Source of the DNA: Candidatus Forterrea multitransposorum CG_2015-17_Forterrea_25_41
Lineage (GTDB): Archaea > Iainarchaeota > Iainarchaeia > Iainarchaeales > CSSED10-239
Direction of reading: 5' to 3'
Assembly: GCA_009392915.1 (NCBI GenBank)
Contig: CP045477.1
Location: forward strand, 352,001-416,000
DNA length: 64,000 bases
Shown here one piece after another: positions 9,818 to 62,200 of the stretch. Below the pieces are notes generated by a model. The model was not told the origin of the DNA. It worked only from the letters and a program-made list of their open reading frames with translations, and ran no database searches. The position numbers and the translations under genes were made by a program. Numbering within the stretch: the first letter of the stretch is position 1; each line of letters starts with the position of its first letter.

Positions 9818-9945
9818 ATCATACCACCATATTTTTAATAATAATTTATATATAATATTACAACAGAAATGTTTATAAAAAGAAAGAAAAATTAGATTCT
9901 AAAAATTTATTTTCAGAAAATAATTTTTAAAAAAAATAAAGAAAT

Positions 9946-25300: not shown

Positions 25301-25364
25301 GTTAGGTAAGTTTTTAAAACTTTTAAAATAACAACTAACATTTAGTCATTATATAAAATAGGAG

Positions 25365-38977: not shown

Positions 38978-38994
38978 ATTTTATAGAAAGGGTT

Positions 38995-39921: not shown

Positions 39922-39932
39922 TTAAAAAATCC

Positions 39933-40538
39933 TTAAATTAAATGAGTTAAAGAAAGGTTTAATTTTAAAAGAGGATCTTGATAGAACTTTAAGATATCTT
40001 GATCTTCTCTAAGTCCATTATTATGCATTATTGCTTGAAATTTAGTAAATAGTTTTGTTGTAGCATAAACATCTGACATTGCTCTATGAGCATATTCGTT
40101 TTTAATATCAAAATAATTACATAAAGATGATAGCCTATAGCTTGGCATTGTTGAAATTATTTTTTTTGCAAGATTCATGGTACAAATATTTTTATTTTCT
40201 AAAGTTTGATTTAAATGTAAATTAAGATTATGATTTATAAAACCAATATCAAAAATAGCATTATGTGCAACTAAAATATCTTTTTTAATAAAATCTATAA
40301 AATTAGGTAAAACTTCTTGAATAGTTGGTTTTTCTTTAACCATATCATCTGTAATTCCTGTAAGTTGTGTAATTTCAGCTGGAATTTTCATTTGAGGATT
40401 TATTAATGTCTCAAATTTATCAACAATTCGATTTCCTTCAAGCTTTAAAGCAGCAATCTCAGTTATTTGATCTTTTGATCTATTAAGACCTGTTGTTTCA
40501 ATATCTAAGACAATGTATCTTCCAAGCATGTTTTTCAC
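39933..40538 (-). CDS. DEDDh 3'-5' exonuclease (DnaQ/epsilon-like)
   Basis: Exo I VLDIETTGL, Exo II LVAHNAIFDIGFI and Exo III HRAMSDVYAT. Confidence 0.7.
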   Translation of the reverse strand: MKNMLGRYIVLDIETTGLNRSKDQITEIAALKLEGNRIVDKFETLINPQMKIPAEITQLTGITDDMVKEKPTIQEVLPNFIDFIKKDILVAHNAIFDIGFINHNLNLHLNQTLENKNICTMNLAKKIISTMPSYRLSSLCNYFDIKNEYAHRAMSDVYATTKLFTKFQAIMHNNGLREDQDILKFYQDPLLKLNLSLTHLI

Positions 40539-40710
40539 CAGTTATGTATTATAAAATTATTTTTTAAGATTGTTATATTTAATATAGAACAACAGCTTTA
40601 AAAAAAGAACCATTAGTTTTCTTAACTTTTTATGTAGTGATTTAATTTTATTCTTTTTAGAAATATAAAAATAGTATTTATAATACTATTTATGGTACTA
40701 ATTATATATT

Positions 40711-41364
40711 ATGATACCAAAAATAACACCAAAAATATTTCCAAAATCAAAGATTGGAAGAAATAAGTTTAATAAAACATTAAAAAACGATCCTTCAGTT
40801 AAAAGAACTGAAATTCAACTTCTATCTATCCCTGGAAAAGGAATACATGATGTTTCTTCAAATAGACGAAAATATAGAGTTGGAAGAGATACTTTAAAGT
40901 TTGAAAAAATACTTAATGAAAGAGTAAAAGAATCTTTTAGAAAAAAATTAAGAAACTTAGAAAATAGAAGTCAACTTTTACACACACATATAACAAAAAG
41001 AAAATCTAAGAGTACTAAAGAAGAATTTGGAATGGCTCTTCCATCAAAATCAGATATTATTTCTTTTATGGAAGATAGAAGAAAAACTATTAAATATCAA
41101 ATAATTTCTGTAATTGACCCTAAGATTAGAAAACCTATAGGATATACAACTATTAAGATTAACACTTTAAAAGCAACACCTAAACAATTTATTGAAAGAA
41201 TAGATGGGTTTATTACAAAAGAAACTATTAAAAATGCTGAATATAAAAAACATATTTTTGAAATGATGGAAAGTTTAGGTATGGAGATTTATTTCACTCC
41301 TGAAGATGGTTATTCCTTAAATAGAAATTTTAATTATGTGAGGAAAAATGAAGCCAAGAAATAG
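40711..41364 (+). CDS. hypothetical protein, family A copy 1 (N-terminal PKITPKIFPK...; GYTTIKIN; C-terminal EIYFTPEDGYSL)
   Basis: Paralogous to the next gene, which overlaps its stop by 17 nt. Confidence 0.45.
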   Translation: MIPKITPKIFPKSKIGRNKFNKTLKNDPSVKRTEIQLLSIPGKGIHDVSSNRRKYRVGRDTLKFEKILNERVKESFRKKLRNLENRSQLLHTHITKRKSKSTKEEFGMALPSKSDIISFMEDRRKTIKYQIISVIDPKIRKPIGYTTIKINTLKATPKQFIERIDGFITKETIKNAEYKKHIFEMMESLGMEIYFTPEDGYSLNRNFNYVRKNEAKK

Positions 41365-42043
41365 TCCAAGAATAACTCCAAAAGTAAAAGCTTTGCCAAA
41401 GATAGGAAAAGTAAAATTTTCAAAAGAAATCAAAACTCTTGAAATTAATAAACTAAATAAAGTTGCTTTCTATAAAGCTCCTGGAGAAAAACCTGTAAGC
41501 ATTTCAGGAGATAGATTGAATTCTTTTGCAGTTATTGATTCTGCAAAGTTTGATGCTATTTTTAAAAATATTAATAAAAAAAGAACAGATACTGGAAAAA
41601 AATCTATAGATAAAGAAAAGGGAAGTCTTTTTTATTTTAAACTACAAGACCCTAAACTTAAAGGAAAATATAACAATGGAAATGCAATTCCTGATCTTTT
41701 TTCACTTATTGATTCAATGTTTAAATATCCTAAAACAAGACATGGTTATGATGTTATGGCTGTTGTAAGTCCAGAGAAAAAAGTCTTAGGATATACCACT
41801 GTTAAAATAAATCATGCATTTATGAAAAAAATACTTCCAGAAATTGAAAATAAAACTATTAAAAATAGAAATGATTTTACAAGAAAAATAGTACATCTGC
41901 TTTCGAATATGGAAGGAAATATTAAAAATAAAGAAACTGTTTTTAATGTTTTAAAAGTTTTAGAAAAGATTGGCTTTGAGGTTTATTTTACTCCTGAAAA
42001 AGGATATAAGCTTGATAAGGAATATAGATTTATTAAAGAATAA
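41348..42043 (+). CDS. hypothetical protein, family A copy 2 (GYTTVKIN; EVYFTPEKGYKL)
   Basis: Collinear with the N-terminal, central and C-terminal motifs of copy 1. Confidence 0.45.
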   Translation: MKPRNSPRITPKVKALPKIGKVKFSKEIKTLEINKLNKVAFYKAPGEKPVSISGDRLNSFAVIDSAKFDAIFKNINKKRTDTGKKSIDKEKGSLFYFKLQDPKLKGKYNNGNAIPDLFSLIDSMFKYPKTRHGYDVMAVVSPEKKVLGYTTVKINHAFMKKILPEIENKTIKNRNDFTRKIVHLLSNMEGNIKNKETVFNVLKVLEKIGFEVYFTPEKGYKLDKEYRFIKE

Positions 42044-42046
42044 TAA

Positions 42047-42808
42047 TTATCTCCAAAAAATAAATTTTTTATCAGAGTATTTTGAATATAATTCTTTTGT
42101 CATAAATTTTTCTTTTTCAGTTAAGCTAGATGTCATGAAATTAATATTAAAAATTTCCTCAAAACCTTGAACAATTGCAGAAATAATTTTTTCTTTTGGA
42201 ATTGTTTTATAATCATATAAACCACAAACAAGGTCTTTTGCAGATTTTACTTTTTTTTCAAGAAGTTTTTTATCGTCTATTTTTAAATATTTAAACATTA
42301 TTTCACATTCAGGTTTTAAAAGAATAGTACCATGATGCAAAATAACATTATCAACTCTTGTTTGTGCATTTCCAGAAATTTTTTTATTATTAAGTAAAAT
42401 ATCATTTACAGGTTTAAAAGTAGTTTCAAATCCAAGTTTTCTTAGTCCAGCTATAATACCACTGCATATTAAAGCATAAGATTTTTCAACATCTTTAGGT
42501 ATACAAAAATCATCTTCTCTAATAATTAAACTATAATTTATTTCATAAAGAGGAGACTTATAAACAGCCCCTCCTCCTGTAATTCTTCTAAAAATTTCAA
42601 TATTATTTTTACTACATTCTTCAAGATTTAATTCTTTTTTAGCTTCTTGAAAAAAGCCTAAAGAAACAGCAGGTTTGTTCCAAGAATAAAACCTAAGTGT
42701 TGGAAGAGAAGATTTATCTCTAACAGAAGACATAATAGCTTCTTCTGATGCCATTTTATAATAAGAATCTTCTTTATCTTCAAGAGAGATTAACCTCCAT
42801 TTTTTCAT
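42047..42808 (-). CDS. lplA: lipoate-protein ligase A (catalytic domain)
   Basis: LRFYSWNKPAVSLGFFQ, RRITGGGAVYK and ILLNNKKISGNAQ motifs of the BPL_LplA_LipB domain. Confidence 0.75.
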   Translation of the reverse strand: MKKWRLISLEDKEDSYYKMASEEAIMSSVRDKSSLPTLRFYSWNKPAVSLGFFQEAKKELNLEECSKNNIEIFRRITGGGAVYKSPLYEINYSLIIREDDFCIPKDVEKSYALICSGIIAGLRKLGFETTFKPVNDILLNNKKISGNAQTRVDNVILHHGTILLKPECEIMFKYLKIDDKKLLEKKVKSAKDLVCGLYDYKTIPKEKIISAIVQGFEEIFNINFMTSSLTEKEKFMTKELYSKYSDKKFIFWR

Positions 42809-43131
42809 TTATATTCCTCTAAAGCTTCTTTAACATATGACAAATAAACAAAAGAAGGTCCTCCTCCCATTAAAACTGCAACCCATGCAATTTCTAAGAT
42901 TTCCTCTTTAGTATATCCTTTATTTAATGCATTTTTTGTATGAATAAAAATACACCCCTTACATTGAGATTTAATTGCAATACCAAGAGCAACAGCTTCT
43001 TTTACTTTTGAAGAAACTTTTCCATCATTTTCTACAATTTGCATAAAATTTTGAAAAGCATTAATATGTTCTAAATTATTTTTTTTAAGATATATAAATA
43101 AATCATTAAATTTTTGTTCTTCATTTTTCAT
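42805..43131 (-). CDS. AhpD-like / carboxymuconolactone-decarboxylase-family protein
   Basis: 108 aa; CKGCIFIHTKNALNKG is a CxxC...H core of the AhpD/CMD fold. Confidence 0.6.
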   Translation of the reverse strand: MKNEEQKFNDLFIYLKKNNLEHINAFQNFMQIVENDGKVSSKVKEAVALGIAIKSQCKGCIFIHTKNALNKGYTKEEILEIAWVAVLMGGGPSFVYLSYVKEALEEYK

Positions 43132-43144
43132 ACTACAATCACCT

Positions 43145-43543
43145 TTACTTCATTGTTTTATCAAGCCATTCAATAATTTTATCTGCTTTAAATAAATCAT
43201 CTATTTCTTTAATATCAGATATCTTTAATTTAATAATCCAAGAATCATAAGGACTTTTATTTATTTTTTCAGGAGCATCATATAATTCTTGATTTATTTC
43301 AATAACCTCTCCACTTAAAGGAGAAGTTAAATGACCAGACCATTTTAAAGTTTCTAAAGAAACATATATGTCTTTTTTTTTTATTTTTTTAAAATCAAAA
43401 AATTTTATAAATAAAAATTCTTTTAATGTTTTTGCAATAGGTTCAATAATACCTATTGTTGCAATATCTTTTTCTATTTTAATCCAACTTGAGTCTTTAT
43501 TATATAATAAATTATCAGGAAGATCATATTCTTTATATTTCAT
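43145..43543 (-). CDS. GcvH-like lipoyl-carrier protein
   Basis: The lipoyl-lysine context SLETLKWSGHLTSPLSGEVIEIN aligns with the GcvH ESVKAASD...SGEV region. Confidence 0.7.
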   Translation of the reverse strand: MKYKEYDLPDNLLYNKDSSWIKIEKDIATIGIIEPIAKTLKEFLFIKFFDFKKIKKKDIYVSLETLKWSGHLTSPLSGEVIEINQELYDAPEKINKSPYDSWIIKLKISDIKEIDDLFKADKIIEWLDKTMK

Positions 43544-43550
43544 AATAAAA

Positions 43551-44807
43551 TCACTTTTTTATTTTATTCTTAATAAAAATAATTATCCCAGTTAAAATCA
43601 AAGCTATTAAAATAACTCCAATAGCAGAAAATATATTATTTAAAAGACCTGGAGAAAAGACAAGCATACCACCTAAAGATAACATCATCATACCTGAAAG
43701 TAATTTTAAGGATTCTCCTTGAGATTGAGATAATTTTCTTGCACCTAAAGTATATGTAAATATTAAAACTATTACAAGTAATGGTAAAACATACATTAAG
43801 TTATAAAATAATAAATAAGAATAATAACTTACATTACTTAATTGATTTAAAACTAATATTTTTGTAAAAACCATAGGGAAACCAGCAGTACATAATAACT
43901 CATAGATGTTTGCTGTTATTGCAAGAACTATTGTTCCAATCATCATTGAAGTCATAGATTCTGCTTTTAAAAGACCTCTCATCTTTGTAATCAAATTTTT
44001 TCTATGATCATCTGAAACTGATAAAGTAATTCCTTTTTTAAAAGCAAAAAAATCTTTAATATTTATAATTGCAATTACTAAAGCTATAATTCCTGCAATT
44101 GTTGTAACAATTGAAATATTTTGTGTGACTTTAAAAAAATTAAGCCATGCTGACATGAATAAAAAATAAATTAAACCAGAAAAGAAAATAAATGTAAGAC
44201 CAATAATTAGCATTCTTTTCTTATTCTTTGCATAAACAAGCATTGATAATAAAAATAATAAAACAAAAAAAGCACAAGGATTAAAACCATCTAAAAAACC
44301 TAAAATTATTGTTAAAAGTGGTAAAGAAACAGAACTTCCATCAATTTTACCAATTAATGGAATATTAAAGGTTTGGGAAGAATTTTGGTTTATGTCTTGT
44401 AAATTATTATCTTGATCTAAATTAATATCATTTACTTCAATTTTTGCATTTTCAATTATACCAATAATCTCATCATTCATTTGAGAGCTATAACCTACAA
44501 AATATTGATCACCTATAAAGGTTGTAGGCACACCCTGAGGTTGAAAACCATGAGATTGTGTTAAATCATAAAAGAGCTCCTGATTTTCAACTGAAGACAC
44601 TTCATAATAATTAATATTTAGATAATCATAATTATTTTCAATAGATGTTAAAAAATTTTTTAATTCTGCACAATGAGGACAAGTATTACTTACAAAAATA
44701 TTTACATCTAAATTGTTTTCTAAAGCATTAACAGATACTGAAAAAACTAATAAAAATAAAAAAGTAAATAAAAATATTTTGTTTAAGATAATTTTTTTTG
44801 TTTGCAT
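43551..44807 (-). CDS. thioredoxin-domain / CcdA(DsbD)-type transmembrane thiol:disulfide reductase fusion
   Basis: N-terminal signal, thioredoxin CPHC (NTCPHCAEL), then a multi-TM DsbD core with the FNPCAF Cys motif. Confidence 0.7.
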   Translation of the reverse strand: MQTKKIILNKIFLFTFLFLLVFSVSVNALENNLDVNIFVSNTCPHCAELKNFLTSIENNYDYLNINYYEVSSVENQELFYDLTQSHGFQPQGVPTTFIGDQYFVGYSSQMNDEIIGIIENAKIEVNDINLDQDNNLQDINQNSSQTFNIPLIGKIDGSSVSLPLLTIILGFLDGFNPCAFFVLLFLLSMLVYAKNKKRMLIIGLTFIFFSGLIYFLFMSAWLNFFKVTQNISIVTTIAGIIALVIAIINIKDFFAFKKGITLSVSDDHRKNLITKMRGLLKAESMTSMMIGTIVLAITANIYELLCTAGFPMVFTKILVLNQLSNVSYYSYLLFYNLMYVLPLLVIVLIFTYTLGARKLSQSQGESLKLLSGMMMLSLGGMLVFSPGLLNNIFSAIGVILIALILTGIIIFIKNKIKK

Positions 44808-44832
44808 GTTTACATCACCATATTTAGTTAAA

Positions 44833-45291
44833 CTACATTAATAATTCTAATTCTTTATTTAAAAAAATAATATTTTTATTATTTTCTTTTTTAACAAGAA
44901 CAATATTTTTTTCCTTAAGTTTTTTAATTAGCCTATGAGCTTTTATTTTGCCATATTTTTTTGCTAAAACCAATTGTTCTATTCTACCATTTTTTTCAAT
45001 AATATAACTTAAGAATGATTTTTCTTCAAAAGATAATATAGAATAAATAGTATTTTGATTTGAAAAAATAATTTTATTTTTTTTAGTTAAAGATAAAGAA
45101 TGAAGATAATAAAATAAAGATATTGAAAATATAATGATTAATAATATAAAAATAAAAAAAGTGTTTTGAGAAATAACATTACTACAAGTACAATCTTTTC
45201 CACTTAAATAATCTTTTTCAAGAAATATAAAAAAGATTATAATAGATATAAAAGAAATTATCGAAATTATAAAAGAATATTTTGATTGCAT
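44833..45291 (-). CDS. small membrane protein with C-terminal wHTH-like segment
   Basis: Two TM helices, then a KNGRIEQLVLAKKYGKIKAHRLIKKLKEKNIV HTH-like region; weak. Confidence 0.35.
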   Translation of the reverse strand: MQSKYSFIISIISFISIIIFFIFLEKDYLSGKDCTCSNVISQNTFFIFILLIIIFSISLFYYLHSLSLTKKNKIIFSNQNTIYSILSFEEKSFLSYIIEKNGRIEQLVLAKKYGKIKAHRLIKKLKEKNIVLVKKENNKNIIFLNKELELLM

Positions 45292-45352
45292 AATAAAAAA
45301 TAAAGTACAAAAAACTTTAAAAAGAGATGTTTCATAAAAATGAAACTTCTAA

Positions 45353-45592
45353 AAAAAACAGTTACTATATATTGAAACAAGATTTAAAAATAAAACTATT
45401 AAAAATAAAAATTACTTGACAAGAAAAATAATAAACCTAATTTTAAATATTAAAGAAAATATAAATAAAAAAAGAAGAAATGTTTCTAATGTTTTAAAAA
45501 TTTTAGAAAAGCTTGGTTTTAAAGTTTATTTAACTCCTGAAAGAAGATATAAGCTTGATAAGGATTATAATTATGTAATAGACGGAAAATAA
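45353..45592 (+). pseudogene. decayed C-terminal fragment of a family-A gene (third copy of the 40711-42043 paralogs)
   Basis: The frame reads ...NKTIKNKNYLTRKIINLILNIKENINKKRRNVSNVLKILEKLGFKVYLTPERRYKLDKDYNYVIDGK* with no start codon and an in-frame TAA at 45350. Clear nucleotide similarity to 41838-42043. Confidence 0.5.
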
Positions 45593-45728
45593 TTTTTATA
45601 AGTATAATTTAATCTTTTTTAAAATAATTGAACATAAGGTTAAAATAATTCGTAATTATCAATACATATAATATATAAAAATATTTTTAAATATTAGCAA
45701 TAACAGTACCAACAAAATACATTTATTA

Positions 45729-45775
45729 GGTATCTTTGTTGCCAAAAGCTTCTGGCGGGAATTGAACCTAAAGGG
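45729..45775 (-). other. degenerate tRNA 3'-end fragment (T-loop GGTTCAATTCCCGCCAG) fused to a decayed copy of the conserved tRNA trailer (AAGCTTTTGGC)
   Basis: Aligns with the tRNA-Gly T-arm and trailer GGTTCGAATCCCGACGAG...AAGCTTTTCGCC, but cannot fold as a tRNA. Confidence 0.3.
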
Positions 45776-45786
45776 AAAAGTGCTTT

Positions 45787-46743
45787 TTAATATCTAGATG
45801 GTTGAATTAAAGTTATTAAATAATCTTTCTTTAAAGAAGTCATAAGCAATTCAACTCTAAACCCTGTGTCTTGTAATATTTGTACAATTGAACCCATTGT
45901 AAATTTATAAGATCTGCCTATTAATAAAAAATCATCTTTTTCAAGTTTTATTTTTTCAGAACCTATCTCAATATAAATATCATCTTTTAAATAAATGGTT
46001 TGCTCAACCTGATTTAATAAAATATTCCAAGCAACATTATATTCTACTTGATCATCTTTAATTCCAAGATAATGTGGAACAAACATAACAAAATTATAAG
46101 CACCTGTTATTTTATATTTATTAATTATATTATCTGTTTTATAAATATTAGATAATTCTACACCTAATAACATATAATCATCTGAGCCCATTGAATCACG
46201 AATATTAGTAAGAACTCTTTCTCTATTAAAATGATTTCCTAAAGTAGAACCTAAAAAACAAAGTAAATTATTAAATCCATCTTTTTTTAAAGTATAAATT
46301 ATATCTGAAAATTGACCTTGCTCAAAATCAATATTGATAGGTAATATTTCTACATCAAATTTTTTAGATATATTATTTTTAGCTAAATTTAACATAGAAT
46401 TACTTATATCTATAGGCACATATCTAAAAACAATATTATTCTCTTTTAAATAATCTAAAATAGGTAATATTGGCTCACCAGTTCCACAACCAAGATCAAT
46501 AATATTTAGTTTAATATCCTTTAAATCGTAAGTAGATATTATATCTTGTATTCTTTTTTTAAGTAAAACAGATTCATTAGAATTAATTGTATTTTTAGAA
46601 TTAGCTCTTAAATTTGAAATATTAAACCAATTTTCTGCTCCTTTATCTAAATAAGCAAATTTTAATGGTATTTCACCAGTAGCCTTAATAGAGGTAATTA
46701 ATTCAAATTCTTGTTTTTGTGATAACATAAATAAATTATACAT
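45787..46743 (-). CDS. class I SAM-dependent methyltransferase
   Basis: Motif I IIDLGCGTGEP and motif II/III spacing; substrate unknown. Confidence 0.65.
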   Translation of the reverse strand: MYNLFMLSQKQEFELITSIKATGEIPLKFAYLDKGAENWFNISNLRANSKNTINSNESVLLKKRIQDIISTYDLKDIKLNIIDLGCGTGEPILPILDYLKENNIVFRYVPIDISNSMLNLAKNNISKKFDVEILPINIDFEQGQFSDIIYTLKKDGFNNLLCFLGSTLGNHFNRERVLTNIRDSMGSDDYMLLGVELSNIYKTDNIINKYKITGAYNFVMFVPHYLGIKDDQVEYNVAWNILLNQVEQTIYLKDDIYIEIGSEKIKLEKDDFLLIGRSYKFTMGSIVQILQDTGFRVELLMTSLKKDYLITLIQPSRY

Positions 46744-46817
46744 ATACTATTTAAATAATTTTCGGTTAAAATCTATTTTTAAACTTCTTATCGGTAATTG
46801 AACCTTATAAAAAAAAA

Positions 46818-48746
46818 CTATTTTCTAGTTTTTAAAATATTTATCTTATCCCTTAAAGTTATAGCTGCCTCAAAATCAAGATTATCAGAGGCCTTTCTCA
46901 TTTCTTTTTCAAGCTCTATTATCATTCTAGAAACGTCCTTTTTAGGTATTGACTTAACATCCTTAATCTCTGTGTGCTTCTCTTCAATAGGCTTAATGAT
47001 TGTCTTAGGTGTTATATTATTCTTTTTATTATATGCAAGCTGTATATTTCTTCTTCTTTCAGTTTCATCCACTGCTTTTCTAATAGATTCAGTTATTCTA
47101 TCAGCATAAAGAATAACTTTAGAATCTTTGTTTCTTGCAGCTCTACCAATAATCTGTATTAAACTTCTCTGGTCTCTTAAAAAACCTTCTTTATCAGCAT
47201 CTAAAATACCAATTAAACCAATCTCAGGAATATCAAGACCCTCTCTTAAAAGATTAATTCCTACAAGAAGATCAAACTTTCCTAAACGTAATTCTCTTAT
47301 AATCTCTGATCTTTCTAAAGTATTAATCTCTGAATGAAGATATCTTGTTTTTATGTTTTGTTCAGCAAAATATTCTGAAAGTTCTTCTGCAAGTTTTTTA
47401 GTTAAGGTAGTAACCAAAACTCTAAATCCTTTTTTAATAGTTTCATTTATGTTTTTTATTAAATGGTTTATCTGTCCTTCAGACTTATGAATCTCTATTG
47501 GAGGATCAACTAAGCCTGTTGGTCTGATAACAAGCTCTGAAATTAATTTTGATTTTGAAAGTTCATAATCTCCAGGAGTTGCTGACACAAAAATAACTTT
47601 ATTCATGAAATTCTTTTCAAACTCTACAAACTTTAAAGGTCTGTTATCATATGCTGATGGAAGACGGAAACCATAATCAATTAAGTTTTTCTTTCTTGAA
47701 AAGTCCCCTGCATACATTGCTCTTAATTGCGGTAGAGTTTGATGACTTTCATCAATAACTAAAAGAAAATCTTTTGGAAAATAATCAATTAAGGTGTATG
47801 CCCTTTCACCAGGTTTTCTTCCATCAAAATGTCTTGAATAGTTTTCAATACCTGAACAATAACCAGCTTCTCTTATCATCTCTAAGTCATACATTGTTCT
47901 TTGTTTAAGTCTTTGTGCTTCTAAAGCACCCATAGAAGGGAGGACTTCATTTAGTTCTTTTTCAATAGATTCTAGAGCTCTTTGTTTTGAAACATCATCA
48001 ATAACAAAGTGTTTTGCAGGAAAGATATAAAGAGAGTTAATCTTTGATAAAACTTCTCCAGTTATTTTATCAATCTCTGTTATTCTATCTATTTTTTTAC
48101 CAAATAACTCTATTCTTATGATATTTTGTGAATATCCTAAGATTAAATCAATAACATCTCCTTTAACTCTGAATTTTCCTTGTGAAAGCTCTAAATCATT
48201 TCTTTCATATTGTATGTTTACTAAATTTTCTAAAATTTCTTGTCTTGAAACCTCTTGTCCAAGATTAATCTCAAAACCCATTTCTTTAAATTTTTCTGGA
48301 TTTCCTAAAGAATAGATACAAGAAACAGAAGCAACAACAATAGTGTCTTCTCTAGAAGCAATTGATGCTGTAGCAGAGAGCCTTAACTCTTCTATCTTTT
48401 CATTAATCTTTGTGTTTTTTTCTATATATAGATCTCTTTGAGGAACATAACTTTCTGGTTGGTAATAATCATAATAAGATACAAAATATTCAACTTTATT
48501 GTTTGGGAATAACTCTTTAAACTCTCTGTAAAGTTGAGCTGCTAATGTTTTATTGTGTGCAAGAACAAGGGTTGGTTTTTGATGTTGTTCAATGATCTTT
48601 GCAACAGTAAATGTTTTACCACTTGCAGTTATTCCTTTAAGGGTTTGTAGTTTAGTTCCTTTTTTTAAAGAAGCTGATAGCTGTTCAATTGCTTTTCCTT
48701 GATCTCCTGCAGGAGAATATTTTGAAACTACTTTAAATTTATTCAT
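46818..48746 (-). CDS. uvrB: excinuclease ABC subunit B
   Basis: [28 protein letters not shown] and the beta-hairpin and helicase motifs are collinear with bacterial UvrB. Confidence 0.9.
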
Positions 48747-48810
48747 GTTTTTCTTTTTTAAATAATAAGTATATATATTAGTTATTTTAAAAATATAAAT
48801 AGGTTTCTAA

Positions 48811-48831
48811 AGAGGGTAAATGGCCGAGAAA
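48811..48831 (+). repeat. 21-bp direct repeat AGAGGGTAAATGGCCGAGAAA (copy 1)
   Basis: Exact copy at 52347-52367. Flanking similarity extends about 35-40 bp (TAA.GAGGG... ...GAAGAAT). Confidence 0.6.
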
Positions 48832-48895
48832 ATTAAAAAGAAGAATTTATAAACTTTTTTAATAACTTTATAAATATATTAAATAGGGAATAAAC

Positions 48896-49675
48896 ATGCC
48901 TCAAAGAAGAAATTTACTTAGAAAAAATCCATCCATCTCAGAATCAATTAAAAACACAAGAGAAAATCCAACCAAAAACAGAAGGAAACTAAATGAAACT
49001 TTAGAAAGATCAAAATCACAACAATATGAAGGTTGGAGAGGTTGTGATGGTGGTTTTCAAAGATATAAAGAAGTTTTTAAAAAAAGTTTAAATGATAGAC
49101 CTACTAATTTTCTTTTAGAAGAATTAAAAGTACATAATCCAAATGTAATGATGCTTGGACCTGGAAAAGGACATTATGCAGCTCTCTTTAAAAAAGAGCT
49201 TGAAAGTATTGGTGTTAATATTCACATAGATACGCTTGGCTTTAGTAAAACTATTGATAAAGAATTAATTAGAGATGAATTAATAAGAAAAGATCATTCT
49301 CCACATATTTCAAAAGCAACTGCTTTTGAACATATAAACCCAAAAGAACATCCAAAACTTATAAAAAAAATAAAAGGAAAATATCATCTAGTCATAGGAG
49401 AAAGATCTGTAGGTTTATATGGTGAATCAAAGCCTTATGCTATTTTTCAAACAGCTTTATTACTTGAAAAAAGAGGAAGAGCATTTTTGGACGTGCAATT
49501 TACTAAAGAAACCTTAAAAGATATTGTAGAAGTCTCAAAAAGGATGTTAAGAGCATATAATAAAGCAAACAATACAGATTTAGAGTATAAAATAACTGCT
49601 TTAAAGGACACTTTAGTTACCTCTCAAGATCTTAGAACACAAGCAATATATATTCAAATAGATAGGGTAAATTAG
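48896..49675 (+). CDS. hypothetical protein
   Basis: ORF track; basic N-terminus and an MLGPGKGHYA Gly-rich loop; no family assigned. Confidence 0.4.
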   Translation: MPQRRNLLRKNPSISESIKNTRENPTKNRRKLNETLERSKSQQYEGWRGCDGGFQRYKEVFKKSLNDRPTNFLLEELKVHNPNVMMLGPGKGHYAALFKKELESIGVNIHIDTLGFSKTIDKELIRDELIRKDHSPHISKATAFEHINPKEHPKLIKKIKGKYHLVIGERSVGLYGESKPYAIFQTALLLEKRGRAFLDVQFTKETLKDIVEVSKRMLRAYNKANNTDLEYKITALKDTLVTSQDLRTQAIYIQIDRVN

Positions 49676-49707
49676 TTATTCTTATTTTAAAAAAAAGTGT
49701 TTTACTT

Positions 49708-50274
49708 ATGATCTTAAATTGGAAATTAATTATAAAAAAATCAAAAGCATTAATGGAAAAACAAACAAAATTAAATAAATCTCCTCCATTGCAACTTACA
49801 AAAATTGCAATAGAAAAAGGAAAAGACTTATCCAAAAGTCATAAAGTGGATAAAAATTTAGTAATAGTCTCTCTCTATTTAGCACACACAATATTTAATC
49901 AACAGAAATCTTCAAAAATAAGAAAAGAACATCCTAAATTAAGTTCTAATTTTGTAAAACCATATTTAAACGAATGGAAAATACCTATAAAAGAGCAAAA
50001 AATAATATTAAATAGTATAGAAGCACATCACGGTAGTATAAAAACAGAAACTAAAATTGCAGAAGTTGTAAAAAATGCAGAATGTTTTAAATTTGTCACA
50101 ATAGAAGGTTCTTTAATATATTTTCACGAGCTTGGTAAAAGAGGTACAAATTATAAAGAAGCAAAAAAGTTAGTTTTAGAAAAAGCAAATGAAAAGTACA
50201 AGTTATTAACATTTAAAGAATGTATTAAAGATGTTGAAGAACAAATGAAGGTTATAAACCATATTTTTAAATAA
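49708..50274 (+). CDS. hypothetical protein
   Basis: ORF track; no motif recognised. Confidence 0.4.
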   Translation: MILNWKLIIKKSKALMEKQTKLNKSPPLQLTKIAIEKGKDLSKSHKVDKNLVIVSLYLAHTIFNQQKSSKIRKEHPKLSSNFVKPYLNEWKIPIKEQKIILNSIEAHHGSIKTETKIAEVVKNAECFKFVTIEGSLIYFHELGKRGTNYKEAKKLVLEKANEKYKLLTFKECIKDVEEQMKVINHIFK

Positions 50275-50300
50275 ATAAAAAGAATCAATTTTAACAAAGC

Positions 50301-50399
50301 TTAAAGATAATGGGCATATACCTTACCATTATAGATAGCTGATTTTTTAAAAAGCCCTTCTAACGGTCCGATTTTTTCGGACACTTCGCTTTCTTTTAA
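50301..50399 (-). pseudogene. remnant of the C-terminal about 30 codons of a GNAT acetyltransferase gene (paralog of 52383-52934)
   Basis: The minus-strand frame reads ...SEKIGPLEGLFKKSAIYNGKVYAHYL*, versus ...KEGLLKKSAIYNGKVYDNYLYALLK* in the intact gene. About 65 bp of nucleotide identity with 52386-52452. Confidence 0.5.
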
Positions 50400-50444
50400 T
50401 TAACTATATATCCTACAAGTATATTTATTTTTAAAAAAAATATA

Positions 50445-51206
50445 TCATACAATTATCTTTAAAATTAGTTTTTCAATTATATCTTTATTTATTCTAAGTA
50501 TGCTAGAGACCTGTTCTAGTTCTTCTTTAGTTATATTTGTTTTAAATTTAATCAATCTTTCTTTAATCGTGTGATTTTTTATAAAAGAAATTAAAGTAGA
50601 TATATCTTCTCCAGAATATAAACATAAAGCAACTATATCACAATAATCTTTAATCTTTTTATGTGTTTGACCTCTATTTACTACAGAATTTATCTTAGTA
50701 GCTAATAATAGAGGTGGAGAGGGTAGCCATAATTTTTTATTAAATTCAATTAATTCTGTTCTATATTTTTTATTCTCAAACACTAACTTAACTAAAGGTT
50801 CATCTGCAGGTGCAAATCCAAGTTCATTTATTATTTGTTTGTTAGTTTCTGCAATTAAAAGATCAATATACATAGGAAAAATATTATGAATAGGAGTGGT
50901 GATTGATTCTTCTTTGGTTAGTTCTTTTCCAGTTTCATAATTTATTTCTTTTAAATATCTAAAACTAACTAATTTAAATCCATTTTCTTCTAAAATATTA
51001 GATGTATATTTAAATGATTTTATAGTATTAAACCCTAAATCTACATCTCTTGAACCAATATAATCAGTTCCAAATTCTGATTTATATCTTGAATTTACAG
51101 TTAAATATGTAGCCCAACCTCCAATAATTATAATTGGTTCTTTTAGTTTAGATATAATTATTTTTAAATAATCATAACTAATTTCAGTTTCTTTTTTGTC
51201 GTACAT
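50445..51206 (-). CDS. AbiEii-like nucleotidyltransferase toxin (type IV TA / abortive infection)
   Basis: IIIGGWATYL...YIGSRDVDLGF matches the AbiEii/DUF1814 NTase motif (GG.A...R.S.D.DL). Overlaps the upstream wHTH gene by 23 nt. Confidence 0.55.
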   Translation of the reverse strand: MYDKKETEISYDYLKIIISKLKEPIIIIGGWATYLTVNSRYKSEFGTDYIGSRDVDLGFNTIKSFKYTSNILEENGFKLVSFRYLKEINYETGKELTKEESITTPIHNIFPMYIDLLIAETNKQIINELGFAPADEPLVKLVFENKKYRTELIEFNKKLWLPSPPLLLATKINSVVNRGQTHKKIKDYCDIVALCLYSGEDISTLISFIKNHTIKERLIKFKTNITKEELEQVSSILRINKDIIEKLILKIIV

Positions 51207-51777
51207 ATTTATTAAGTAGTATATTATATGCTTCTATACATACCCCACCTTCTTTTTTAAGATCAATTAATAATTGAGGAATAGAGACAACCTTGAGTTC
51301 GTTTATTTTATTTGATTCTTTAAAAACATCTTTACCTTTTGAAATGATTAAAACTACATTTCCATTACCAATCAATCCTTTAGTTAAGATTAAATCTTTC
51401 CATTTTACATAATCTTCTTTAGAAATATATGCTTGAAATTTGTGTGGGAATAGATGATGATTAATTATATTTTCAGCAGCATAGGTTGTTAATGCATAAT
51501 CTAAGTTAGTTGTTTTAAAAAAATCAAGTGGATTTGATATATGAAAGTAATATTGTTCATATTTTTTATCTATTTTTATATAATAATCAATAAGTTTATT
51601 GACATCAATAACTTTTGTTTTTTCAATAATCCCTTCATTTTCTAATTTTCTAAGAAATTGAATAGTCCAAGCAATAGAGGTATTTGAAATTTTTGAAAGT
51701 TTATACTTAGTTAAACTTCCATCTGGATTATTTAGAAGAATTTTTATGATTTTTAGATTTTTTATATTTCTCATCAT
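51184..51777 (-). CDS. AbiEi-like wHTH antitoxin/transcriptional regulator
   Basis: N-terminal winged-helix (LSKISNTSIAWTIQFLRKLENEGIIEK) plus a C-terminal domain; genetic coupling to the NTase gene. Confidence 0.5.
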   Translation of the reverse strand: MMRNIKNLKIIKILLNNPDGSLTKYKLSKISNTSIAWTIQFLRKLENEGIIEKTKVIDVNKLIDYYIKIDKKYEQYYFHISNPLDFFKTTNLDYALTTYAAENIINHHLFPHKFQAYISKEDYVKWKDLILTKGLIGNGNVVLIISKGKDVFKESNKINELKVVSIPQLLIDLKKEGGVCIEAYNILLNKYVRQKRN

Positions 51778-51791
51778 ATATATATTGGTTA

Positions 51792-52295
51792 TTAGAAGGG
51801 TTTATAAAGGTTACCGATATATTGGTAATATTGGTAGTATATAAACTTAACCAATATAGCTATTAACCAATACTTCTTTTTATACTCTCTAGCATCAATT
51901 CTTTCTTTTAATTTTATTCTTTCTTCTACAAGTTCTTGTTTTCTTGTCTGAATTGCAAAATAACTTTGAGCAAATGCAATTTCTTCTTTTCTTGAGTCTC
52001 CATTTTGTGCTATTAAGTAACATGCATATCTAGTTAATGTATAATCAATTATTTCTCTTTCTGCATCAGATCCTAATTTAACCTTTTTCCTGACCTCAAG
52101 AAAATGGTCATTAATATTAAATCCTGAATTTTTACAAGAAATTTTTGCTTTTTCAATTATACTTACAAAATTTTCCCATTTAGTATAACCTAAAAGGTCT
52201 TGTAACTCCCTTGCAAGCCAAAATTCAAGATTATCTTTAAAATAAGCACTATCTTGAAAACTTTTAGTTAGTTTATAAATTATTTCTCTTTGCAT
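51792..52295 (-). CDS. DinD-like (DNA-damage-inducible protein D / BRO-N-like) protein
   Basis: The N-terminal half is collinear with E. coli DinD: FWLARELQDLLGYTKWENF...NDHF...GSDAEREIIDYTLTRYACYLIAQNGD...YFAIQTRKQEL. Confidence 0.65.
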   Translation of the reverse strand: MQREIIYKLTKSFQDSAYFKDNLEFWLARELQDLLGYTKWENFVSIIEKAKISCKNSGFNINDHFLEVRKKVKLGSDAEREIIDYTLTRYACYLIAQNGDSRKEEIAFAQSYFAIQTRKQELVEERIKLKERIDAREYKKKYWLIAILVKFIYYQYYQYIGNLYKPF

Positions 52296-52346
52296 AGAAC
52301 ATCACATATATATAAGAGTCTTTAATTTATATATTGATTTTGTAAG

Positions 52347-52367
52347 AGAGGGTAAATGGCCGAGAAA
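52347..52367 (+). repeat. 21-bp direct repeat AGAGGGTAAATGGCCGAGAAA (copy 2)
   Basis: Exact match to 48811-48831. Confidence 0.6.
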
Positions 52368-52382
52368 GAGAAGAATAGAATT

Positions 52383-52934
52383 TTATTTTAATAAAGCATA
52401 AAGATAATTATCATATACTTTACCATTATAGATAGCTGATTTTTTTAAAAGCCCTTCTTTTTTAAATTTACTTTTTTCTAAAACTTTAATAGAGCCTATA
52501 TTTTTAGTACAAACTTCAGCTGCTATTCTTTTAATACAGGTATTTTTAAATAAAAAATGAATATATGCTTTTATAGCTTCAGACATAAATCCTTTATTCC
52601 AATAAGAAGAATGAAGCATAAAACCTAAATCACATCTTTTAAAATCTTTAATAATTGTAAAAATATCAATAGAGCCTATTAATTTATTTTCATAAGTTAT
52701 AAAAAAAGAAGCTCCTTTTCTTTTTTTCCAAGCATCTACTTTTCTTAAAATTTGTTTTTCTACAATCTTTCTTGAGTTTTTATTATCTCCAGAACCATTA
52801 TATATCCAGAGATTTTTATCTTCATATAACTTATAAAGTTCTTCTTTATATTTTATATCTGGTTTTATAAGTAATAATCTTTTTGTCTTTACTGGCTTAT
52901 ACTTATAACCTTTGTTAAATATTTTTTCATCCAT
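52383..52934 (-). CDS. GNAT acetyltransferase (RimJ/RimL-like)
   Basis: Motif A region and the C-terminal ...KVLEKSKFKKEGLLKKSAIYNGKVYDNYLYAL typical of the RimL family. Confidence 0.7.
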   Translation of the reverse strand: MDEKIFNKGYKYKPVKTKRLLLIKPDIKYKEELYKLYEDKNLWIYNGSGDNKNSRKIVEKQILRKVDAWKKRKGASFFITYENKLIGSIDIFTIIKDFKRCDLGFMLHSSYWNKGFMSEAIKAYIHFLFKNTCIKRIAAEVCTKNIGSIKVLEKSKFKKEGLLKKSAIYNGKVYDNYLYALLK

Positions 52935-53627: not shown

Positions 53628-54008
53628 TTAAATTTCAATTATGTATTCTTTTAAAACTTTTGTACCCCATATTCTAAACTGAGTTGCTTTAGATGAATTT
53701 ACTCTATATCCTACTGATATTATTGCATCTAAATTATAAAAATCAACATTTCTTTTAACATCTCTAGTTCCTTCTTTTTGAACTATTAGGAATTTCCTAA
53801 TAGTTTGATTTTTATTTAACTCTGCAGAATCATATATATTTTTTAGATGTTCATTTATAGTTGGGATTTCAACTCCAAATAATTCTGCAATCCTTTTCTT
53901 AGTTAACCATATATTTTCATTATAAATATAAACATCTAATTTTACTTCTCCATCTGGAGATTTATACAATAAAAATTTATTATTTTTAGAAATGATCTCT
54001 TTAGTCAT
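53628..54008 (-). CDS. RhuM-family (virulence/phage-associated) protein, N-terminal domain only
   Basis: NLDAIISVGYRVNSSKATQFRIWGTKVLKEYI is the hallmark RhuM segment. The gene is about one third the usual length. Confidence 0.6.
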   Translation of the reverse strand: MTKEIISKNNKFLLYKSPDGEVKLDVYIYNENIWLTKKRIAELFGVEIPTINEHLKNIYDSAELNKNQTIRKFLIVQKEGTRDVKRNVDFYNLDAIISVGYRVNSSKATQFRIWGTKVLKEYIIEI

Positions 54009-58566: not shown

Positions 58567-59220
58567 TTAAGTATAAATTATTTTACTTTTTATAAATTTA
58601 ATTTCAAGTTTTTCTGTGCATTTAATTTTAATTATTATATTTGCACTTTTTGAAAAATTATCTGCAAAAATATTTATGTTTGAACTAATTTTATATATTT
58701 TATTTTTTTCAAATTTAATTTTAGGAAATCCAATAGGTATTTGTTTAATCATAGGTAAAATATTTCCATTTATATTTACACTTCCTTCAAAAAAATTAAA
58801 TAAATCTAAATAATGCAATTCATTTTTAGATAAATTAAAATTTTCTTTACCTTCAGAACATTTACCTTTATGAGTTGCACTCCAGACAAAATAATTAGGA
58901 TCAAAAGGATATATTTTTTTATTATTCAATTTTATTTCATTACATTTAATTTTAATATTGTTTATTGCTATTGAACCTATATTTATTACTTTTATTCTAA
59001 AATAAATTAAATTACAACTTGAACCATCATGTTGATTAATATAAATTTTATTAATCTTATGAACACAGTTAACATCATCTAAATCAATTTTAATTTTTGG
59101 TTTTTTAATAAAATTAATAATATCTTCTTTAAATAATGCAACAACTACTGCACATAGAGTTAAAAAAGCCATAATTATTTGAATAATTGAATCTAAATTA
59201 TTTTCAACCATCAATACCAT
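58567..59220 (-). CDS. single-pass membrane protein of unknown function, translationally coupled to hsdR (17-nt overlap)
   Basis: N-terminal TM IIQIIMAFLTLCAVVVALF; no motifs. Confidence 0.45.
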   Translation of the reverse strand: MVLMVENNLDSIIQIIMAFLTLCAVVVALFKEDIINFIKKPKIKIDLDDVNCVHKINKIYINQHDGSSCNLIYFRIKVINIGSIAINNIKIKCNEIKLNNKKIYPFDPNYFVWSATHKGKCSEGKENFNLSKNELHYLDLFNFFEGSVNINGNILPMIKQIPIGFPKIKFEKNKIYKISSNINIFADNFSKSANIIIKIKCTEKLEIKFIKSKIIYT

Positions 59221-62200
59221 CTCTACAAATTCTTTCTGCTTGTTCTAAAACCAATTTTACTGCTTCTGCTTGCATATCAGGAGGATAACCATACTTTGAA
59301 AGAATTCTCTTAACCAAAACTCTTATCTTTGCTCTTTCAGTTTCTCTAATTTCCCAATCAACGCTTGTTGTATTCTTTTTAATAGTATCTGTTAAAATTT
59401 TTGCAATAACAACTATTTGTTTATCCCCTAAAACATCTAAAGCACTTTTATTATTTGAAAGAGCATCATAAAAAGCAACTTCATCTTCGGATAAATCAAG
59501 TTCTTCACCTTTCTTTTCAGAAGCTTTAATTTCTTTTGCAATTTTTAATAGTTCTTCAATAACTTCAACAGTTGTTATACTTCTATTAGTATATAATTTA
59601 ATAATATTTTCAATCATTTCCTTAAAAGATCTTTGTTTTACAATATTTTTTCTAAATCTGGATTTAATTTCATCATTAAGAAGTTTTCTATACATCTCTA
59701 ATGCTAAATTCTTTTGAGGTAAATTTTTAATTTCAAGCATAAATTCTTCAGAAAGTATAGAAATATCTGGTCTTTTAAGTCCTGCAACTTTTAAAACATC
59801 CATAATTCCAGAAGACATTATTGATTTTGAAATTAATTGATTTAAATTTTGTTCTAAAAGCTCAGTTTGAGAAATATTTCTAGTAACAGTATTTTTTACA
59901 AACTGTGATTTAATTGCTTGGAAAAATGCAATTTCTTCTTTTAAATCTAAAGCTCTTTTATCAGGAACTGCTAAAGAGAATGCTCTTAAAAGATTAATAG
60001 TTGCATCAATAAATCTTTTTTTACCATCTTCTTGTTTTAATATATGTTCCATTGCATTAATTAAAAGCTTCATTCTATAATTTGTGTCTTTATTTTCTAA
60101 ATCATATTCAAACTTATATAATAAAGATTTAACAACATCATATTTATTTAATAATAAATTTACTGCTTCTTCTTGATTAATTCCAACCTTTTGTTGATCT
60201 TTTGGAGAATAATTACCTAAGGCTTCTTTTAATTGAGTAAGTATACTTATATAATCTACAATTAATCCACCTTGTTTTTCTCCAAAAACTCTATTTACTC
60301 TTGCAATTGCTTGCATTAAATTATGGTCTTTCATTGGTTTATCAATATACATTGTATGAAGAGAAGGAACATCAAAACCAGTAAGCCACATATCTCTTAC
60401 AATTACAAGTTTAATCTCTGAAGAAGGATCTTTAAAAACATCTCCAATTTCTCTTCTTTTTTCTGAATTTCTAATATGTCTTTGCCAGTCTAAAGGGTCA
60501 GTTGCGTTACCAGTCATTATTACCTTTAAAAATCCTTTTTTATCATCTTCGTTATCCCACTCTGGTTTAATTTTTATTATTTCATTATATAAATCTACAC
60601 ATATTCTTCTAGACATACAAACAATAATACCTTTTCCTGGCATTCCTAGTTGTCTTTCTTGGAAATGATTTATTATATCTTTTGCAATTTCTTTAATTCT
60701 TTCAGGATGACCTATTATTTTTTCAATTCTTGCCCATTTACTTTTTAATTGTTCTTTTGTATCTTTTTCTTCAGTTTCTGTTACATATTCAAAATCTTTA
60801 TCTAAAGTTATTTGAGATTCTGGATTTAAAGATATTTTTGCAAGTCTACTTTCATAGTAAATAGGAACTGTCATTTTATCTTCAACAGCTTTACTGATAT
60901 CATAAACATCTACATTTTCTCCAAATACATTTCTTGTACTTTTATCACTTTTTTCAATTGGAGTTCCTGTAAAACCAATATAGGTTGCATTTGGAAGAGC
61001 ATCTCTTAGGTTTTTTGCAAAACCTTCTAAAAAACCATATTGTGATCTATGTGCTTCATCAACAATAACAACTATATTTTCTCTATTTGATAGTTCTGGA
61101 TAAACTTCTCCTTTATTTTCTGATGAAAATTTTTGAATTGTTGAAAAAATAACTCCTCCAGAAGATACTTGTAATAGTCTTTTAATTTCTTCTCTATCTT
61201 CTGCTTGTTTTGGATCTTGTCTTAAAACATCTTTACATTTTGAAAATGTTGTGAAAAGTTGATCATCTAGTTCGTTTCTATCTGTTAAAACTAATAAAGT
61301 TGGATTGTTTAGTTGTTGTATAACTTTTCCTGAATAGAAAAGCATGGTTAATGATTTTCCTGAACCTTGAGTATGCCAAACAACACCTGCTCTTTTATCT
61401 TTTCCTTTAACAGCTTTAATTGTTGAAGATACTGCATTGTTTGTTGCATTATATTGATGATATGCTGCTATTTTTTTAATAGTTTTATCTTTATCTGCTT
61501 CATAGACTATAAAATTGTTTATTAAGTCTAATAATGTTTCTTTATTTAACATTCCTCTTATTAAAACTTCTAATTGTGTTAAATAAGAGGCTTGATCTTT
61601 ATATATTGTTTTCCAGATCATGAATCTATCTAGATTTGAAGAAATTGTTCCAACTCTTGTGTCTGTTCCGTCTGAAATTACTAAAATTTGATTATAGTTA
61701 AAGATTGTTGGAATTTCTTGTTTGTATGTTTGTAATTGGTTGTATGCTTTTTTAATATCTGCATTTTCATCTGTTGGATTTTTTAATTCTATTAAAACAA
61801 CTGGTATTCCATTTATAAATAAAATAATGTCTGGTCTTCTGGTATGTTCAGTTTCTTTAATTGTAAATTGGTTTAATGCTATAAATTCATTATTGTTTAT
61901 GTTATCTTTGTCTATTAAGTTTATTTTTATCCATTTTAGGTTTCCATTTATTCTTGTTTGAACGGTTATTCCTTCTGTTAGATATTTGTAAATTTGTTTG
62001 TTGTTTTCTATTAGTTTTTGTGATTCTATTCTTTGTAGTTTTTTAATAGCTTCTTGTTTTGCATCTTCAGGAAGATTTGGGTTTATATCACTTATTTTTC
62101 TTTTTAAAGTTTCATTTAAGAGCACTTGTGAGAAATCATCTCTTTCTGGTCTTTGGCTATCTGGAGCTATGTCTACTCCATTAAGTTTAGTGTAACCTAT

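Follow-up and report, generated by a model that had tools for sequence, protein, structure and literature searches.

A 3.5-kb segment of defence-type genes between 21-bp direct repeats, present or absent at a uvrB-GNAT hotspot in a DPANN-like archaeon

In Streptococcus thermophilus, the 3′ end of fda, where ICESt1 and ICESt3 are found, is reportedly a place where cis-mobilizable elements (CIMEs) arise and grow by site-specific accretion. Archaeal elements of the SSV and pNOB8 types encode tyrosine integrases and target tRNA genes. DPANN archaea have tiny genomes, few recognizable mobile-element genes and a variable defence content. The locus described here lies in a stretch of 64,000 nt of Candidatus Forterrea multitransposorum (contig CP045477.1, positions 352,001 to 416,000; the window hereafter means this whole stretch) and consists of a 3.5-kb segment flanked by two perfect copies of a 21-bp sequence, called A, between uvrB and a gene encoding a GNAT acetyltransferase. 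The segment is a genuine presence/absence polymorphism whose boundaries lie exactly at A, and the site is a strain-variable hotspot between uvrB and GNAT in a DPANN-like archaeon. On balance, the segment is probably a non-autonomous composite array of defence-type cassettes, and the two copies of A would be the two joints of a reciprocal recombination at A. No description of this locus, or of integrase-less direct-repeat-flanked elements in DPANN archaea, was found in the literature.

The repeat AGAGGGTAAATGGCCGAGAAA was known from an earlier note on this DNA, made from the sequence without database searches, which placed perfect copies at 48811 and 52347. Both copies are exact (A1, 48811-48831; A2, 52347-52367), and a third one is absent from the window, also when 3 mismatches are tolerated. 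A set of 100 dinucleotide-preserving shuffles of the window gave no match (0 expected by chance). The spacing from A1 to A2 is 3,536 bp, with 3,515 bp between the copies. A1 lies about 65 nt upstream of the uvrB start, and A2 ends, in window coordinates, 15 nt before the stop codon of the intact minus-strand GNAT gene, beside whose 3′ end the earlier note had placed the second copy. With respect to this gene, A lies 16 nt downstream of the stop. The repeat does not extend further: over 41 nt on the left and 64 nt on the right, the surroundings of the two copies are no more similar than composition-matched controls, a leftward extension into the promoter is not significant (p 0.06-0.09), and neither is a further relic of the GNAT end to the right of A1 (p 0.2). 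The features that frame the segment are the following.

46818-48746, minus strand: uvrB, the conserved left flank (Pfam UvrB_inter, UvrB, Helicase_C and UVR)
48747-48810, minus strand: upstream (promoter) region of uvrB, the left flank of A1 (70/70 against the empty site of locus L086)
48811-48831, plus strand: A1, the left repeat copy; an attL-like junction of the uvrB side, A and the ORF259 side
52347-52367, plus strand: A2, the right repeat copy; an attR-like junction of the cargo side, A and the GNAT side
52368-52458, minus strand: 17-nt spacer and B2, the 3′ end of the intact GNAT gene; the right flank, identical or nearly so in empty sites
52383-52934, minus strand: GNAT gene (Acetyltransf_3, Pfam 1.7e-19), the conserved right flank, with mosaic alleles among strains

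The G+C content of the window genome is about 24%, that of the insert is equal to it, and an archaeal 16S rRNA gene is located at 25360-26854 of the window. An exact look-up of the flanking proteins gave a match on the 663-kb JGI metagenome contig Ga0100381_1000002 (3300007985). The gene order was the same on 24/24 contigs read, separately for the UvrB and for the GNAT look-ups, so the structure of the segment is not an assembly artefact; the window arrangement was also found on one more variant contig from a different sample.

The contigs of relatives were reached via cluster members of the UvrB and GNAT proteins. The search for an empty site in relatives, a test set beforehand, gave 13 conspecific loci (L085-L093 and L095-L098, covering three variants of the neighbouring locus) in which GNAT and uvrB are separated by a 99-nt spacer holding a single copy of A. 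In each of them, this copy is flanked as A1 on the left and as A2 on the right. Given a nucleotide identity to the window of 95.6-97.5% over the greater part of 35-58 kb, the strains are of one species with it; their uvrB genes, those of the sister clade, are 95.8-96.0% identical to that of the window. A virtual excision of 48832-52367 from the window gives the empty-site sequence. Compared with L086, the product matches at 290/300 positions in its left flank and is identical over 101 nt on the right, up to the start of a divergent GNAT allele; compared with L092, the right flank matches at 296/300. The suggestion of the earlier note that the repeats are an att-type duplication or a recombination scar is supported by this exact single-copy joint in conspecific strains, and its caveat that gene order might be invariant among relatives does not hold, since the relatives differ in gene order at the locus. 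The idea of a simple inserted segment stands only in part: there is indeed an insertion/deletion polymorphism, but the segment is a composite of several modules and gene relics. The sole difference inside A between empty sites and window is at position 2, which is A (AAAGGG) in 13/13 empty sites and G (AGAGGG) both in the two window copies and in the occupied locus L003. As a separate observation, the base at this position tracks occupancy even inside the sister clade.

The distribution of A was explored beyond these strains. Across the window and 1.74 Mb of fetched loci, all copies of A lie at the uvrB-GNAT locus, which removes the objection that it could be a multi-copy motif. An exact scan of metagenome contigs returned L003 and a chance match in a G+C-rich contig (L004). 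An exact scan of GTDB genomes for the 21-mer gave no match, a UvrB-based scan of the same genomes gave only relatives at or below 64% identity, and the exact 18-nt core GGGTAAATGGCCGAGAAA had no match in viral contigs.

Two further arrangements come from other lineages. In L003, which belongs to the sister clade, an 86-aa winged-helix open reading frame (ORF86) and a full PDC-S13 gene (ORF276) lie between uvrB and a single A. ORF276 is intact there at the same locus and belongs to a subfamily different from that of the DinD-like gene of the window. The homology of the window to L003, as to the empty sites, begins exactly at the left edge of A2. L104 and L105 represent another species (identity of 88.7% for uvrB and 76-83% for other genes) and carry two A-like copies, with no intact GNAT beside uvrB. 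The proximal copy of L104, AATCGTTAAATGGCCGAGAAA, lies 63 nt upstream of uvrB and is followed by a probable short relic of the GNAT end (p 0.04). The distal copy, AAAGGGTAAATGGCCGAGAAA, stands between an ORF86 homologue, present with its promoter and gene, and an ORF259 relic, present with its upstream region and initial 52 codons; the homology of each flank is significant (A/ORF259, z 5.8; ORF86-promoter/A, z 4.7). The region between the two copies of L104 also includes a ParE/RelE-like frame broken by two stop codons (9545-9917), whose stitched translation matches Pfam ParE_toxin with an E value of 0.04.

A 15-nt core, TAAATGGCCGAGAAA, is unchanged in every copy of A from the three lineages, whereas the flanks are only about 65-75% identical between species. 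Four classes of junctions are found around it: uvrB-promoter/A/GNAT end at the empty sites (attB-like), uvrB-promoter/A/ORF259 at A1 of the window (attL-like), cargo/A/GNAT end at A2 of the window and in L003 (attR-like), and ORF86-promoter/A/ORF259 at the distal copy of L104 (attP-like), the last being chromosomal and not on a circle. Since all four classes are seen, the pattern is the one expected of a reciprocal attB × attP exchange. Judged by these alignments, A is a recurrent joint, sharply bounded on both sides, across three lineages. As the A/ORF259 junction goes back to the split from L104, the empty sites of the sister clade may be precise excisions and not the ancestral state.

The interior of the segment contains the following features.

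48896-49675, plus strand: ORF259, methyltransferase-like, from a small DPANN-centred family
49708-50274, plus strand: ORF188, weakly HD-like (Cas3-HD with PADLOC, E 3e-4; TIGR01596, 1e-3; Pfam HD, 0.02)
50288-50361, minus strand: B1, relic of the last 71 nt and the stop codon of GNAT, 91% identical over 74 nt to 52385-52458 (B2)
50362-50387, minus strand: frag276, relic of a PDC-S13/DinD-like gene, corresponding to codons about 60-68 of ORF276 of L003
50452-51858, minus strand: AbiEi/AbiEii-like two-gene module, a discrete transferable block of 1.4 kb
50445-51206, minus strand: AbiEii-like nucleotidyltransferase, putative toxin (PADLOC AbiEii, 1.7e-4; Pfam PF08843, 3e-3)
51184-51777, minus strand: AbiEi-like protein, putative antitoxin/regulator, with an N-terminal winged helix (HTH_24, Crp, MarR)
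51780-51872, no strand assigned: array of direct and inverted repeats, ATATTGGTA / TTAACCAATA, upstream of the AbiEi-like gene
51792-52295, minus strand: DinD′, the N-terminal half of a DinD/PDC-S13 protein, cut at about residue 138-145

The AbiE pair, the DinD-like gene and the two unknown genes announced by the earlier note are all present, with the qualifications that DinD is reduced to its N-terminal half and that the AbiE pair is divergent. ORF259 belongs to a family with 11 close homologues and 87 cluster representatives, one homologue being found alone in a different context without A. Its weak profile matches (Methyltransf_23, PRMT5, spermidine synthase) suggest that it is probably a class I (Rossmann-fold) methyltransferase-like protein. 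ORF259 was also considered as a hidden recombinase and rejected, as its profiles point weakly to methyltransferases without any recombinase signal; its AlphaFold model was unusable (predicted local distance difference test, pLDDT, 42). The HD matches of ORF188 are all under curated thresholds, and no homology was detectable between this protein and the HD protein located beside the AbiE module in L103.

The relic B1 corresponds to a duplicate of the GNAT 3′ end that had been described as 65 bp long at 50301-50362; the duplicate is real, but its actual extent is 50288-50361. B1 is 88-92% identical to the GNAT ends of other strains, and its minus-strand translation ends with EGLFKKSAIYNGKVYAHYL*. 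Only 17 nt separate A2 from B2; A1 and B1 are separated by ORF259 and ORF188. B1 is fused in frame to frag276, a stretch of 26 nt with 96% identity to positions 3101-3126 of L003, which includes the hairpin GTCCGATTTTTTCGGAC and has a 22-nt exact match confined to L003 and the window. By its sequence, the internal joint between B1 and frag276 is an illegitimate one. A 15-nt exact match, AAAAGAATCAATTTT, was also noticed between 50273-50287 of the window and 3111-3125 of L103, in a position colinear with that of the AbiE module. Its significance is marginal (E 0.003); a real match would mean that B1 and frag276, together 100 nt, were inserted into the sequence that lies downstream of the AbiE module.

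The AbiE module shares 86.8% nucleotide identity over 1,408 nt with positions 1643-3047 of L103, where it stands in an unrelated gene context. The AbiEi-like gene overlaps the downstream toxin gene by 23 nt and both genes are co-conserved in L103. The AbiEii-like protein scores 17.8 bits against PF08843, whose gathering cut-off is 22.5, and belongs to a family of 62 proteins, 1 of which is named AbiEii/AbiGii by NCBI; the motif GG...SRDVD is invariant. Its AlphaFold model (pLDDT 92.9) has as top Foldseek matches the nucleotidyltransferase-like structure 5uvd and the MenT1 toxin 8an4 (matches of this type having prob 1.0 and TM scores of 0.43-0.53). According to this model, the protein, a putative toxin, has a MenT/AbiEii-type nucleotidyltransferase fold. 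The profile matches of the AbiEi-like protein (3e-3 to 2e-2) concern the winged helix alone, the C-terminal domain of AbiEi being not recognized. By analogy with known AbiEi autoregulation, the repeat array upstream of this gene would be operator-like.

DinD′ matches NF008573 with an E value of 5.6e-56 at profile positions 1-143 of 288 (190 bits, cut-off 242) and PDC-S13 with 7e-58 at positions 1-139 of 281. Most of its best-scoring homologues are 270-290 aa long and align to only 81-82% of the query. Because the profile match stops at position 143 of 288 and the end of DinD′ coincides with the start of the AbiE module, after 137 N-terminal residues that match DinD strongly, DinD′ is a truncated gene copy, cut by the AbiE module. 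In the DNA search of plasmid and phage collections, the dinD part alone gave matches. Many database proteins of 136-170 aa, some of them on 11-15 contigs, also consist of the DinD N-terminal domain alone, which may reflect either a stand-alone N-terminal form or DinD genes that are often interrupted at the same inter-domain point.

Taken as a whole, the formation of the segment could be viewed as follows. A circular intermediate carrying one copy of A would recombine with the chromosomal A by a single crossover of the Campbell type, and the recombination of A1 with A2 would excise the segment precisely, leaving a circle with the junction ...GATTTTGTAAG-AGAGGGTAAATGGCCGAGAAA-ATTAAAAAGAAG... The exchange would be catalysed by a recombinase encoded elsewhere, by a helper element or as a host enzyme, or would proceed by short-homology recombination. 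B, the 74-nt copy of the GNAT end, would have acted as another recombination patch while the array was taking shape. As to direction, the polymorphism could have arisen by integration in the window strain or by precise excision in the sister clade.

Several observations weigh against this scheme. A circular or excised form of the segment was not observed. As the earlier note had already remarked, no integrase is seen: neither an integrase nor a transposase was found among the five insert proteins, in about 10 kb on each side (precomputed Pfam) or among 20 further ORFs of the window. The dyad symmetry of A is no better than that of shuffled sequences, and neither is its single-strand folding (-1.1 and 0 kcal/mol). 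In L003, there is a single A and the boundary on the uvrB side lies 6 nt upstream of the ATG, which implies that not every event at the locus is an A × A exchange. The relics B1 and frag276 imply that at least one illegitimate joint contributed to the segment. Lastly, the window and L104 arrangements jointly require crossovers at both A and B, a combination for which homologous recombination, at whatever patch is shared, would be at least as good an explanation as a dedicated site-specific enzyme.

Known types of attachment sites were also compared with A and rejected. A was considered as a 5′ fragment of a tRNA gene, but there is no tRNA gene near the locus and Rfam gave no match, either at gathering thresholds or with E values up to 10. 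It lacks the inverted arms of a dif site of the type used by IMEX elements, a result of the dyad test only, the archaeal dif consensus being not compared. An attC array of the integron type was discarded too, A having no hairpin and no integrase being encoded within about 10 kb.

Among the other explanations, the most serious, although it was given only a modest minority share of belief, is that the window arose by the merger of two differently occupied alleles. One parent would have carried ORF259-ORF188 between A and the GNAT stop codon, and the other a cargo of the DinD/PDC-S13 type between uvrB and A; homology-facilitated illegitimate recombination, or a crossover in the GNAT 3′ end, would have joined them, both copies of A being parental leftovers and not a dedicated site. 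The direct fusion of B1 to frag276 is indeed an illegitimate joint, B1 lies to the right of A1 in the order and orientation that A and B have at the empty site, and frag276 is oriented relative to A2 as ORF276 is in L003, itself an existing allele with a cargo to the left of a single A. Alleles with GNAT-anchored duplications are also known from L092 and L086. However, such a merger needs two independent earlier insertions, each abutting the same 21 bp from opposite sides; an allele with only ORF259-ORF188 was not found among the loci, and the supposed relics of the spacer around these two genes have no statistical support. Nor does it explain by itself the attP-like junction of L104 and the core of A that is unchanged across species.

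That A is mainly a regulatory sequence, an operator or an upstream activating site for uvrB and for cassettes of the DinD or ORF86 type, seems improbable. The incoming cassette would have brought its own A and the recombination would merely have used the shared motif. Every copy of A does lie upstream of a gene that is transcribed away from it on the uvrB side (uvrB, DinD′ or ORF86), TATA-like AT-rich boxes begin about 10 nt after A at 3/5 copies, uvrB and dinD are both inducible by DNA damage in Escherichia coli, and the core is unchanged between species. But no other A was found in the window or in the L104 locus, whose 22 kb also include uvrC and the end of uvrA; the start codons are at unequal distances from A (52, 65, 132 and 141 nt), DNA of 24% G+C is full of TATA-like strings, and neither the 21/21 identity nor indel boundaries exactly at the edges of A are expected for transcription-factor sites. 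An insertion by a transposon or a casposon-like element, with a target-site duplication of 21 bp, is very unlikely indeed, and a classical form of the target-site duplication raised by the earlier note is unlikely. The insert does lie between direct repeats and the empty site is single-copy; nevertheless, the termini of the segment match as inverted repeats at only 10 of 25 positions, the best local match being internal, and no transposase, Cas1 or PolB gene was found among the insert proteins and the genes within about 10 kb. Target-site duplications are usually shorter than 21 bp, the interior of the segment is a patchwork of chromosomal relics, and the L104 junction, in which A stands between both types of element ends, is not one that a cut-and-paste element would leave.

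The probable exchange at A has a stronger version, which is doubtful at present: A would be the attachment site of an unrecognized trans-acting recombination system of DPANN archaea, lacking a detectable integrase gene near A, that brings promoter-bearing defence cassettes (DinD/PDC-S13, ORF86, toxin-antitoxin modules) into the position upstream of uvrB and removes them from it. If this were true, archaea would have their own equivalent of the CIME- or integron-like cassette platforms, and one that is kept across species.

The neighbourhood of the segment is variable as well. In L092 (7169-9901), L095 (7820-10552) and L085 (229-2961), two full copies of GNAT flank the genes GNAT147 and DUF2330, the first copy of L085 having a divergent centre (about 77% identity) and identical ends. 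These alleles point to a mosaic GNAT gene and a GNAT-anchored duplication. In L086 (8059-9900), an 83-aa GNAT relic made of the 5′ 158 nt and about 45 nt of the 3′ end is followed by an unannotated 323-aa gene and then by a GNAT of divergent sequence (77.7% identity), which becomes identical to the window again over roughly its final 100 nt. Downstream of uvrB, the window has at 45462-46809 a histidine-methyltransferase-like gene (Methyltransf_33, 45787-46743), in place of which the sister clade has an ORF of 62-75 aa (DUF7557 in L003); uvrB is thus flanked by variable DNA on both sides. The uvrB gene itself is split into ORFs of 533 and 126 aa in L096 (10652-12578) and L097 (2699-4625), as a result of either a frameshift pseudogene or a sequencing error. 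Further left, 39924-45460 is about 85% identical to the sister clade, compared with 96-97% on either side, and looks like a tract imported by recombination. It is preceded by about 940 bp (38980-39924) without counterpart in the sister-clade loci, another insertion/deletion difference, which, judged by position, would coincide with an unannotated 308-aa gene of L001.

The right side fits the defence-island setting proposed by the earlier note. About 7 kb to the right of the segment, 59204-63963 encodes the R subunit of a type I restriction enzyme (1,018 aa) together with an AAA_15/AAA_21 ATPase, and a RhuM/PDC-S05 ORF is found nearby (53628-54008). The latter corresponds to only the N-terminal 126 aa of its family, for which many profiles have a length of about 330 aa, and the same 126-aa ORF is called in every sister-strain locus that reaches it.

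The locus provides a base-pair-exact example of the turnover of defence content in DPANN archaea: several strains, and a second species as well, share one 21-bp joint, behind which modules of the AbiE-like and DinD/PDC types have been exchanged, cut short or nested. Should A be the substrate of a dedicated enzyme, these archaea would have a new way of exchanging genes; if only short-homology recombination is involved, patches of 21-74 bp would suffice for natural cassette shuffling. The feature most worth attention is the joint itself, as it recurs across species.

When compared with known systems, the closest analogues would be the accretion of CIMEs at the 3′ end of a gene and variable defence hotspots. 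Like CIMEs, the segment is non-autonomous, is flanked by att-type direct repeats just past the 3′ end of a conserved gene, lacks its own integrase, shows a composite build-up of tandem modules and has conspecific empty sites. Unlike them, it is found in a DPANN-like archaeon, neither a helper element nor an integrase is known for it and its mobilization is putative; moreover, A lies 16 nt downstream of the gene and not inside it, and the GNAT end would have been used as a second homology patch. As for elements of the SSV and pNOB8 types, the direct repeats would be left by a reciprocal exchange and attB, attP, attL and attR types are recognizable. These archaeal elements differ from the segment, which has neither a whole nor a split integrase gene, a target that is not a tRNA gene, a repeat of only 21 bp and a cargo of defence genes instead of viral or plasmid functions.

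At the level of single modules, the AbiE-like pair resembles the AbiE type IV toxin-antitoxin and MenAT systems by its small winged-helix gene overlapping a downstream DUF1814-type nucleotidyltransferase gene, its predicted MenT1-like fold and its upstream repeat array, and differs from them in that its matches stay under curated thresholds and that the AbiEi-like protein is matched via the winged helix alone. With respect to the DinD of E. coli and the PADLOC candidate PDC-S13, the N-terminal 137 residues of DinD′ match strongly and the C-terminal half is missing. The gene content of the segment fits the enrichment in AbiE and PDC systems that has been reported for DPANN archaea (PMC12988326). 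As in defence islands, strain-variable genes of the AbiE-like, DinD/PDC-S13 and RhuM/PDC-S05 types, many of them truncated, lie between conserved genes; unlike in usual defence islands, the exact joint is known here and recurs across species.

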